64,000 bases of DNA from positions 31,392-95,391 of the forward strand of contig DAONXX010000001.1 of the NCBI GenBank assembly GCA_035414025.1, given 5' to 3'. This document shows, one piece after another, positions 8,460 to 11,427 of the stretch. Position 1 is the stretch's first letter. Every line of letters starts with the position of its first letter. The notes beneath the pieces are model-generated. The model was not told the origin of the DNA, ran no database searches, and was given only the letters and a program-made list of their open reading frames with translations. The stretch is from Bacteroidales bacterium (GTDB lineage: Bacteria > Bacteroidota > Bacteroidia > Bacteroidales > VadinHA17). A program made the translations under genes and the position numbers.

Positions 8460-9023
8460 TTAGAATGGCAGATCATCTTCATCCTGACCTAATTGGGGTT
8501 CATCACTGAATGTGCCGCCTGGTCCGGATTCACTGCCATCCATTATGTTAATATTATTCCATTCTCCGTAACTGGTATTTTTTACTGCCTTGTTTTGAAT
8601 ATCATCGGGTTCATTAATCCCGTTAACCGGTCCGGTTCTTGCCAGGGATTCTTTACCGGCAACATCAGTTTGAGAAGAATAAGAGCCAGGGGACTGTTTT
8701 TTATCAAGTACCATTAATGTATCAGCGAGTATCTCGGTAATGTATTTGTTGTTTCCCTCCTTGTCGACATAGGATCTGGTTTTTATCTTACCGACAAGAT
8801 AGACTTGTGTCCCTTTTTTGATTGTTTTTTCTGCAACTTCAGCAAGCGCACGCCACAAAACAATATTATGCCATTCAGTTGATGTTATTGTTTCGCCCTG
8901 CTGATTTGTATATGTTTCGCTTGTTGCCAGTGGGAATGTCGTTTTAACTACGCCTTTGTCGAAATACCTTACGACTGGATCTTTGCCAGCATTGCCAACA
9001 AGTATGACTTTATTGATTGACAT
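8460..9023 (-). CDS. ssb: single-stranded DNA-binding protein
   Basis: OB fold beginning MSINKVILVGNAGKDP, with WHNIVLW. A long disordered linker is followed by the acidic tip DEDDLPF. Confidence 0.95.
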   Translation of the reverse strand: MSINKVILVGNAGKDPVVRYFDKGVVKTTFPLATSETYTNQQGETITSTEWHNIVLWRALAEVAEKTIKKGTQVYLVGKIKTRSYVDKEGNNKYITEILADTLMVLDKKQSPGSYSSQTDVAGKESLARTGPVNGINEPDDIQNKAVKNTSYGEWNNINIMDGSESGPGGTFSDEPQLGQDEDDLPF

Positions 9024-9297
9024 ATAGTTATGAATATTAAGTTAATACACCTAACAGGACTATAAAGTTATAGAAAAAAACCTCTTTCTGCAATTATGGA
9101 AGGATTTAAAGGTTATTATGCAATATAATCAATATATTATAATTTTTATTACCAGCAGCTCCAAAACCAGAAACTTTGAAAAGACAACTTTGAAAGGATG
9201 AATGAAATATTCCTTTCTCTTTTGTAATTAAGTCAATAATAAAATATTATAAAAAAATTTATTCCTTAAGTGTTTCTTTTTAAACAAATAATATTTC

Positions 9298-9305
9298 TAT
9301 ATTTG
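9298..9305 (+). promoter_or_regulatory. candidate -7 promoter element TATATTTG for hup
   Basis: Exact TAnnTTTG match 59 nt upstream of the hup ATG, in a 340-bp AT-rich divergent intergenic region. Confidence 0.4.
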
Positions 9306-9363
9306 CAGGGTTGAAAAAAAGATACTCAAAATAATTTGTTGAATTTATTAAACTTCAAGCAAA

Positions 9364-9651
9364 ATGACTAAAGCAGATGTTGTAAATGAAATTGCCAAAA
9401 GTACTGGTATTGAAAAGGTAACTGTTCAGAAAACAGTCGAAGCCTTTATGGACACTATAAAACAGTCGATGATCGCTGGTAATAATGTTTATCTCAGAGG
9501 TTTCGGAAGCTTTATTGTTAAGAAAAGAGCAAAGAAAACTGCAAGGAATATTTCCAAGAATACTACTATCATAATTCCTGCTCACAATATCCCGGCTTTT
9601 AAACCGGCCAAATCATTCATTAATAAAGTAAAAACTAACGTTAAGAACTAA
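9364..9651 (+). CDS. hup: HU family DNA-binding protein
   Basis: 95 aa. MTKADVVNEIAKSTG...LRGFGSF...ARNISKNTTIIIPAHNIPAFKP is a classic HU/IHF fold signature. Confidence 0.95.
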   Translation: MTKADVVNEIAKSTGIEKVTVQKTVEAFMDTIKQSMIAGNNVYLRGFGSFIVKKRAKKTARNISKNTTIIIPAHNIPAFKPAKSFINKVKTNVKN

Positions 9652-9657
9652 TCCTTT

Positions 9658-9750
9658 ATGCCAAGCGGGAAAAAGAGAAAAAGACATAAAATGGCTACCC
9701 ACAAGCGGAAAAAACGTTTGCGGAAGAACAGACATAAGAAGAAGAAGTAA
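9658..9750 (+). CDS. unannotated 30-aa hyper-basic micro-protein (possible tiny ribosomal protein, bS22-like by composition)
   Basis: The ATG lies 7 nt after the hup stop. Translation is MPSGKKRKRHKMATHKRKKRLRKNRHKKKK, ending in TAA at 9748..9750. 21 of 30 residues are K/R/H. A strong hairpin follows at 9783..9812. The ORF is below the size cut-off of the ORF track. Confidence 0.5.
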   Translation: MPSGKKRKRHKMATHKRKKRLRKNRHKKKK

Positions 9751-9782
9751 CAGATTATAGGGTAGTCTACAATTAACGAACT

Positions 9783-9812
9783 AAACCTAAAGGTCCGGTG
9801 ATCTTTAGGTTT
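9783..9812 (+). terminator. intrinsic terminator-like hairpin after hup and the micro-ORF
   Basis: AAACCTAAAGGTC / GATCTTTAGGTTT forms a 13-bp stem with one G.U pair and a CGGT tetraloop. The 3' arm ends in TTT and is followed by GTTGT. Confidence 0.6.
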
Positions 9813-9867
9813 GTTGTATATGGGTGTCGGGGATTGATAGTGATGTATTACCTATGATTTAATACAA

Positions 9868-11427
9868 GTGGCAAATAAGGATCTGATCATCGATGTTGGG
9901 GATACTGAGATCTCTCTGGCATTACTGGATGACAAGCAGTTAGTTGAACTAAATAAGGAAAAGCGTAACATAAAGTTCTCTGTCGGGGATATTTACCTTG
10001 GAAAGGTAAAAAAGATTATGCCCGGACTTAATGCAGCTTTTATAAATGTTGGTTACGAGCGTGACGCCTTTCTTCATTATCTTGATCTGGGTGCGCAGTT
10101 TAGGACCCAGCAAAAATATTATGCTTCAGCGCTTCAGAGGCAGGGTAAGGTGACTTCTGTCCATAAATTCAAACCTGAATCCGATATAGATAAAGATGGC
10201 AAGATCACTGATGTGCTCACTCAGGGACAGACAGTAATAGTCCAGATAACAAAAGAACCGATTTCAACAAAAGGGCCAAGGCTTGCATCTGAAATTTCTC
10301 TTGCAGGAAGGAACCTTGTTCTGATACCATTCTCTGATAAGGTCTCAATTTCATCAAAGATCGAGAATATTGAAGAGAAAAATCGCCTGAAGACTCTTTT
10401 ACAGAGCATTAAGCCCCGTAATTATGGGATAATTGTACGTACGGCAGCTGAAGGAAAAAAAGTTGCCGTGCTTGATGCCGAGTTACGTGAACTGGTAAGG
10501 AAATGGGAATCTGCCTTTTCTTCAGTTAAAAAGGAGATCAAAACGCCCAGACTCTTTATAGGAGAGATGAACAGAACAACTGCTATGGTACGTGATATGC
10601 TTAACGTGACTTTTAACAGCATTCATATAAATGATCATACTCTCTTTGAGGAAGTCCGTTCATACATCAAAGAGATAGCTCCGGAAAAATCAGGAATAGT
10701 AAAACTGTTTAAAGGTACTATTCCGATATTTGATCATTTTGGCATCAATAAGCAGATCAAGGCACTTTTTGGTAAAACAGTTTCCTTCAAGCATGGGGCA
10801 TATCTTATTATAGATCACACTGAAGCTCTGCATGTAATTGACGTAAACAGCGGGAACCGCTCAAGGACAGGGAATGACCAGGAACTTAATGCCCTTGAGG
10901 TCAATATGGAAGCAGCAACTGAAATAGCCCGGCAACTGAGACTAAGGGATATGGGCGGAATCATTGTGATCGATTTCATTGATATGCAGACAAACGAAAA
11001 TAAGCATTTGCTCTATGAAAGGATGAAAGAGCTGATGGCTAGCGACAGGACTAAACATAACATACTTCCGCTCACCAAGTTCGGTCTTATGCAGATAACA
11101 AGGCAGAGAGTCAGGCCGGAGATGAAAATCATTACGGATGAAAAGTGTCCGGCCTGCCAGGGTACTGGTGAAATTAAACCGACAATACTTTTCACCGATG
11201 AGCTTGAAAGTATGCTGGCTTTCATTGTTGGCAAGATAAAAACAAAGAAACTTTTTTTAAATGTCCATCCTTTTGTGGCTTCTTACCTGACTAAGGGATT
11301 ATTCCCGGTCTTCCTGAAATGGAATCTGAAATACAAAATAATAATCAAGGTACAGGCTGCTACCTCGTATCATATGCTTGAGTACCATTTTTACGACAGG
11401 TTTGAAAACGAGATAGACCTTCCTTAG
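9868..11427 (+). CDS. rng: ribonuclease E/G family protein (RNase G)
   Basis: 519 aa with a GTG start. S1 domain GDIYLGKVKKIMPGLNAAFINVG, catalytic region IDVNSG, and a Zn-link-like CPACQGTG. Confidence 0.9.
   Translation: MANKDLIIDVGDTEISLALLDDKQLVELNKEKRNIKFSVGDIYLGKVKKIMPGLNAAFINVGYERDAFLHYLDLGAQFRTQQKYYASALQRQGKVTSVHKFKPESDIDKDGKITDVLTQGQTVIVQITKEPISTKGPRLASEISLAGRNLVLIPFSDKVSISSKIENIEEKNRLKTLLQSIKPRNYGIIVRTAAEGKKVAVLDAELRELVRKWESAFSSVKKEIKTPRLFIGEMNRTTAMVRDMLNVTFNSIHINDHTLFEEVRSYIKEIAPEKSGIVKLFKGTIPIFDHFGINKQIKALFGKTVSFKHGAYLIIDHTEALHVIDVNSGNRSRTGNDQELNALEVNMEAATEIARQLRLRDMGGIIVIDFIDMQTNENKHLLYERMKELMASDRTKHNILPLTKFGLMQITRQRVRPEMKIITDEKCPACQGTGEIKPTILFTDELESMLAFIVGKIKTKKLFLNVHPFVASYLTKGLFPVFLKWNLKYKIIIKVQAATSYHMLEYHFYDRFENEIDLP

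Follow-up and report, generated by a model that had tools for sequence, protein, structure and literature searches.

A 30-residue micro-ORF between hup and rng in a Bacteroidales genome is a predicted gene for ribosomal protein bS22

Gene content of the hup–rng locus

The locus described here lies on the plus strand of a 64,000-nucleotide stretch of Bacteroidales DNA that was analysed as a whole (the window; G+C content 40.4%). Its first gene is hup (9364–9651, with the TAA stop codon at 9649–9651), encoding a 95-residue HU-family DNA-binding protein (Pfam PF00216 Bac_DNA_binding, 93.8 bits) and preceded by a promoter-like −7 motif of the TAnnTTTG type (TATATTTG, 9298–9305), 66 nt upstream of the hup ATG. 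A pyrimidine-rich junction of 6 nt (tccttt, 9652–9657), without a Shine-Dalgarno sequence, separates hup from a 93-nt ORF (9658–9750) that opens with ATG, closes with TAA and would encode the 30-residue peptide MPSGKKRKRHKMATHKRKKRLRKNRHKKKK; we interpret this ORF below as an rpsV-like gene for the ribosomal protein bS22. Two predicted folds follow on the same strand, a small 7-bp stem-loop directly 3′ of the stop codon (9752–9768, with arms at 9752–9758 and 9762–9768) and a terminator-like hairpin located by a terminator scan (9782–9813), which has a 13–14-bp stem, a CGGT loop and a T-rich tail (TTGTTGTAT) that extends the element to 9820. The next gene, rng (9868–11427), encodes a 519-residue Rne/Rng-family ribonuclease (TIGR00757, 428 bits) and is a neighbour of the bS22 unit, lying outside it.

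A first-pass annotation of the window had drawn attention to an ATG shortly after the HU stop codon that opens a 93-nt ORF, to a product in which 21 of 30 residues are K, R or H, and to a 13-bp tetraloop hairpin 33 nt further on. All three descriptions hold: the spacer is 6 nt long, the peptide contains 12 lysines, six arginines and three histidines, and the stem begins at the 33rd nucleotide past the stop. Of the ATG-initiated ORFs of 18–70 residues in the 64-kb window, no other exceeds 41% in its content of K, R and H. Searches of the 64-kb window for tRNA genes, and against Rfam at the gathering threshold, returned no matches.

Conservation of the micro-ORF

The evolutionary behaviour of the ORF was assessed in 80 orthologous loci from species-representative genomes, anchored on the RNase G protein, a choice that is blind to the micro-ORF itself. 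These loci come from metagenome-assembled genomes of uncultured Bacteroidales, Rikenellaceae or Bacteroidia, with RNase G sequences 80–94% identical to that of the window; five were left out because a contig end cuts the locus before the ORF position, leaving 75 testable loci. The micro-ORF occupies the same place, in frame, in every one of the 75. Adding the window and ten further loci found by exact-peptide look-up (L081–L090) gave 86 sequences, among which there are 81 distinct coding DNAs. Variation is found in 27 of the 29 codons compared, the invariant ones being the two ATGs, and amino-acid replacements occur at two positions only (A13S twice and K29R once). Nei-Gojobori counting in the ORF frame accordingly gives pS = 0.60 and pN = 0.0084, a pN/pS of 0.014, and in the two shifted frames the ratios are 6 and 75.

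Could the ORF be a chance, untranslated reading frame in an A-rich intergenic spacer full of AAR and AGR triplets? Its very small size, its low complexity and the lack of a curated HMM match above threshold would all be expected of such a frame. Chance would not keep it in frame in 75/75 loci with near-purely synonymous substitution while the shifted frames behave as non-coding, nor produce a peptide near-identical to those seen in cryo-EM density (see below); we regard this reading as refuted by the comparative data and its residual probability as vanishingly small. Because the ORF is in frame throughout and its change is almost purely synonymous, it stands far beyond chance, and on this comparative evidence we take the micro-ORF to be a real gene, under extreme purifying selection and far more conserved than its neighbours. 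The question raised by the first-pass annotation, whether an equivalent ORF follows hup in relatives with its frame preserved, can thus be answered positively (75/75 loci, pN/pS = 0.014).

The ten exact-peptide loci extend this picture over a larger distance. Their RNase G and HU proteins are only 50–62% and 63–84% identical to those of the window, respectively, and the 30-residue peptide is 100% identical, with 13–22 silent nucleotide differences among the 93 nucleotides of the ORF. The exact 30-residue product is also a called gene in public assemblies, for which the index lists 3070 blocks.

Two of the loci depart from the common length. At L010:2795-2905 the stop codon is lost and the frame runs to 36 residues (...KKKKQIIGWS), and at L050:2793-2867 a premature TGA at codon 25 leaves 24 residues; each is either a real variant or an assembly error. 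A smaller difference concerns the C terminus, where the window peptide has four terminal lysines (30 residues; 9739–9750) and nearly all of the 75 closest relatives have three (29 residues). The 29- and 30-residue forms differ by a single AAG unit within an AAG run (MPSGKKRKRHKMATHKRKKRLRKNRHKKK(K)).

Identity of the encoded peptide

A phmmer search of PDB chains with the window peptide returned three matches, all ribosomal. The closest is chain 10 of the Porphyromonas gingivalis ribosome (9i5v; 28/30 residues identical, E = 1.2e-10), which carries the depositor name 'AURKAIP1/COX24 domain-containing protein', followed by chain 5 of the Flavobacterium johnsoniae ribosome, 30S protein S22 (7jil; 27/30 identical, E = 3.8e-10), and by chain V of the Borrelia burgdorferi ribosome, bS22 (8fmw; E = 1.1e-5). 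A family profile built from six Bacteroidota and Borrelia sequences scores 54–61 bits on these three chains, and 18 alignment columns are invariant between the window peptide and the solved chains, including the motifs MPxG, THKRKK and NRHKK. NCBIfam release 20, which presumably includes models for other tiny ribosomal proteins such as Thx, bL36 and bL34, has no family that matches the bS22 peptide at E ≤ 10.

The F. johnsoniae (Fjoh_1533, 7JIL) and P. gingivalis (AAQ66340.1, 9I5V) proteins come from the same phylum as the window and, like the window peptide, are 30 residues long. All three share an MPxGKKRKRHK N-terminus, a central THKRKKR and a C-terminal NRHKKKK lysine tail, and the window peptide differs from the two solved proteins by only 2–3 conservative substitutions. 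The four terminal lysines are common to the window and the two solved proteins, whereas three is the usual number among the window's closest relatives. Homology to Borrelia bS22 (8FMW chain V) is also clear (54.6 bits with the profile; MPxGxKRK, THKRKK and NRHKK in common), although that protein is 28 residues long, belongs to another phylum and starts with GUG (bioRxiv 10.1101/2023.04.16.537070). Since the window peptide retains the features of solved bS22, the four terminal lysines included, we assign it to this family: judged by its sequence, ORF 9658–9750 is the gene for a ribosomal protein bS22 of the Bacteroidota/Borrelia type. The first-pass annotation had likened the product to tiny rRNA-embedded ribosomal proteins of the bS22 kind, and that proposal is borne out by the 28/30 and 27/30 identities to the 9i5v and 7jil chains and by the match to Borrelia 8fmw. 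The protein itself is not new, as Bacteroidota bS22 has been known since the F. johnsoniae structure of 2020.

Predicted position in the ribosome

In F. johnsoniae, bS22 was built de novo into unassigned density of the 30S subunit, where it sits between helices h44 and h45 of 16S rRNA and touches H70 of the 50S subunit; the gene, Fjoh_1533, encodes 30 residues with a pI of 12.7 and is highly conserved among Bacteroidetes, and the name bS22 was given for positional and structural equivalence with the Mycobacterium smegmatis protein (PMC7797042). A 2026 study describes the same protein as one α-helix followed by four lysines and reports it in 70S initiation complexes and its loss from isolated 30S subunits (PMC13000457). 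The same 30-residue protein was modelled in the P. gingivalis ribosome (AAQ66340.1), in a study that emphasises how close it lies to the aminoglycoside site of h44 (PMC12123416). The Borrelia peptide had been un-annotated and resembles the F. johnsoniae protein more than its mycobacterial namesake (bioRxiv 10.1101/2023.04.16.537070). The lysine tail is the part of bS22 reported in contact with the 50S subunit.

By analogy with these solved chains, to which it is 90–93% identical in the two Bacteroidota, the window peptide would fold as one short α-helix with a lysine tail and occupy the rRNA pocket between h44 and h45 of 16S rRNA, beneath the platform and close to the decoding centre. The lysines at its C terminus would reach H70 of 23S rRNA (H68 in Borrelia), so placed that the peptide might both neutralise rRNA charge and add a small inter-subunit bridge.

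The main value of this assignment lies in the correction of annotation. A gene of this size is easily missed by ORF-length cut-offs and has no curated NCBIfam match, and for these two reasons DNA such as this seems to contain an 'orphan' micro-ORF that is in fact predicted to be a core ribosomal component. Both bS22 and mS38, its counterpart in mitochondria, have been connected in published work with the access of aminoglycosides to h44 and with inter-subunit contacts, so that correct annotation of bS22 in uncultured Bacteroidales should be of some practical value.

Relation to mycobacterial bS22, mS38 and eL41

The bS22 of Mycobacterium and other Actinobacteria (5O5J, 5O61), mitochondrial mS38 (AURKAIP1/COX24) and eukaryotic eL41 resemble the window peptide in size and charge, but show no significant sequence similarity to it. 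The Pfam COX24_C model (PF08213) aligns residues 3–30 of the peptide to positions 3–30 of its 33 positions, with a score of 12.1 bits (E = 0.19) that falls under the 23-bit gathering cut-off. The Bacteroidota and Borrelia bS22 profile, searched against the PDB at E ≤ 10, recovered no actinobacterial bS22, mS38 or eL41, and BLASTP of M. smegmatis bS22 against the window peptide gave no alignment at E ≤ 100. In the reverse direction, a search with M. smegmatis bS22, its sequence verified against PDB entries 5o5j, 5o61 and others, reached mS38 only at E ~0.1 and did not reach the Bacteroidota chains. Membership of COX24_C at the sequence level was therefore set aside on the score of 12.1 against 23 bits and the null profile and BLASTP searches, and the likeness to mycobacterial bS22 and AURKAIP1/COX24 that the first-pass annotation had pointed to finds no backing at that level.

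The case for equating the peptide with the mycobacterial, mitochondrial and eL41 proteins rests instead on published superpositions, that is on position and fold. Mycobacterial bS22, mS38 and eL41 occupy the same h44/h45 pocket as a short basic helix with a bend (PMC7797042, PMC12123416, bioRxiv 10.1101/2023.04.16.537070), and convergence has been raised as a possibility (PMC12123416).

The putative hup-bS22 expression unit

Across the 86 loci hup is always found upstream of the micro-ORF, and rng lies downstream of it in all loci examined. In 69 of the 86 the hup stop and the ATG are exactly 6 nt apart, and in some others the spacer measures 25–92 nt; the junction varies in sequence yet stays pyrimidine-rich (TAA-TCCTYY-ATG). 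A gene for a TPR-repeat protein stands between hup and bS22 in two distant lineages (L081:2492-2980, 162 residues; L084:2134-2997, 287 residues), and the tight 6-nt junction is thus specific to some lineages.

An alternative proposal makes the peptide a nucleoid-associated micro-protein that is free of the ribosome and binds nucleic acid as a partner or modulator of HU, the tight linkage of the two genes reflecting a common function on DNA. Such a role would be in keeping with the position of the ORF after hup throughout the 86 loci, usually directly and with the 6-nt spacer, and the extreme basic charge of the peptide would bind any nucleic acid. The adjacency is not obligatory, however, as the TPR insertions show, and near-identical peptides (27–28 of 30 residues) have been modelled in a specific rRNA pocket of ribosomes purified from two Bacteroidota. 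Borrelia has the same peptide, and 100% conservation over deep divergence is more readily explained by a fixed pocket in rRNA than by binding to DNA without specificity. Beyond gene adjacency nothing was found to support the proposal, and we consider it extremely improbable.

Our preferred reading is that ORF 9658–9750 is the bS22 gene, that its product occupies the h44/h45 pocket and that it is the second cistron of a hup-bS22 unit, with co-transcription inferred; we would put the probability of this joint explanation at roughly 0.94. The transcript would run from a Bacteroidota-type promoter ~60 nt upstream of hup to the hairpin and U-run at 9782–9820, where it would terminate. The motif TAnnTTTG, which we take to be the Bacteroides-type −7 promoter element, occurs within 150 nt of hup in 67/67 loci with enough upstream DNA, almost always 62–68 nt from the ATG, and has no occurrence in the 28 kb of hup-to-micro-ORF spans. 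The copy at 9298–9305 (TATATTTG) is likely to be the promoter of the hup-bS22 unit. With the conserved synteny and the hairpin, this motif supports the earlier suggestion that hup and the micro-ORF form one compact bicistronic unit closed by the hairpin. The presumed hup 5′ UTR (9306–9363, gcagggttgaaaaaaagatactcaaaataatttgttgaatttattaaacttcaagcaaa) is highly conserved among the relatives inspected and has an A-rich stretch before the ATG.

No Shine-Dalgarno sequence precedes the bS22 ATG, in line with expectation for Bacteroidia. This start codon has T rather than A at −3 and lacks upstream adenines, whereas hup has AAA before its ATG. Given the 6-nt spacing and the absence of both a Shine-Dalgarno sequence and upstream adenines, the ribosomes that translate bS22 probably re-initiate there directly after completing hup. 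With its promoter motif, 6-nt junction and terminator, the hup-bS22 unit offers a clean natural example for the study of Shine-Dalgarno-independent re-initiation in Bacteroidia, which we see as a modest addition and not a discovery. The hup-bS22-rng arrangement and the invariant hairpin were not found in the searchable literature on bS22 gene context, and this synteny together with the unusually invariant hairpin are the only points here that are possibly undescribed.

The hairpin between bS22 and rng

The stem of the hairpin consists of 13 bp, AAACCTAAAGGTC pairing with GATCTTTAGGTTT (9783–9795 and 9800–9812) around the loop CGGT; an extra U·G pair between 9782 and 9813 brings the total to 14, and the tail reads TTGTATATGG. 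It is the only site returned by the terminator scan of 9000–10000 (one found against 0.2 expected from shuffles), and the 80-nt segment that contains it (9751–9830) folds with −21.3 kcal/mol (z = −2.2). Rfam searches around the hairpin gave nothing credible, the best match (E = 1.8) being eukaryotic snoRNA/leader noise. In an alignment of 74 sequences the 12–13-bp stem is paired in 99.9% of cells, mostly because there is so little sequence change. Common variation is confined to a swap at two adjacent pairs, G·U plus U-A for A-U plus U·G, together with one A-U to G-C double change. As every sequence has a G·U pair in the stem, complete pairing is limited to the plus strand, and this strand-specificity points to an RNA element rather than a DNA palindrome.

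A hairpin with a T-run is present at the same place in 10/10 of the more distant genomes (L081–L090); in some of these the outer arms AAACCTAAAG...CTTTAGGTTT are retained around different inner pairs, and in others the stems are unrelated. The pattern fits an intrinsic (Rho-independent) terminator that would close the hup-bS22 unit. The stem is A+U-rich, with four G-C pairs among its 13–14, and the T-run is interrupted; some read-through into rng is possible.

The stem (9783–9812) is near-invariant in 74 species-level genomes, and synonymous sites in the adjacent ORF are ~60% diverged. The constraint on the stem sequence is more than structure alone requires. Its 3′ arm (9806–9813) has the sequence TAGGTTTG in the window and in 11 relatives; most others carry TAGGTTTA. 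The form TAGGTTTG matches the −7 promoter motif TAnnTTTG and stands 55 nt upstream of the rng start, and by this resemblance the arm could serve as a promoter element for rng.

One way to account for so conserved an arrangement is that the ORF acts mainly as a leader peptide for rng, its translation controlling whether the hairpin at 9782–9813 forms and hence the read-through into rng, by attenuation. The order of ORF, hairpin with T-run and rng is indeed kept in all loci, the hairpin sequence is unusually invariant with a second small stem right after the stop codon, and most loci have no clear independent promoter motif for rng. A leader peptide, however, needs no amino-acid sequence frozen at a pN/pS of 0.014 and identical across orders, and solved structures show the product as a stable part of the ribosome. 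The geometry is also unfavourable, as the 32 nt from the stop to the hairpin would leave the stem uncovered by a terminating ribosome, and folding of the segment revealed no alternative anti-terminator pairing. We therefore think a leader function very unlikely, and retain the reading of the ORF as the bS22 gene.

A further elaboration of the bS22 reading would make two claims jointly, namely that Bacteroidales bS22 is made only by re-initiation after HU and that the hairpin is more than a terminator. Situated between bS22 and the only RNase E/G gene, the hairpin could be a site for RNase E/G autoregulation or processing, with a role analogous to that of the rne 5′ UTR of E. coli; another option is that its 3′ arm (TAGGTTTG / TAGGTTTA) also acts as the −7 element of rng. 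We hold this combination to be doubtful, although a good deal less so than a leader function. Re-initiation as the only route, if true, would couple the amount of a peptide at the ribosomal interface to that of the main nucleoid protein.

The small stem and the upstream gene order

The small stem directly after the bS22 stop (9752–9768) has a conserved GT(G/A)GTC 3′ arm. In the alignment of 74 sequences 76% of its cells are paired, and one pair shows double changes from C-G to U-A; Rfam has no family for it. These features hint that it might be a conserved structured element, and we list it as a tentative candidate.

Upstream of hup the gene order varies. In the window ssb (8460–9023, minus strand) abuts the hup promoter region, with no mutY in between. 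Immediately upstream of hup, nine of the ten exact-peptide loci (L081–L089) have a minus-strand mutY-like gene (HhH-GPD and NUDIX_4 domains), and in six of those nine ssb is found beyond it.
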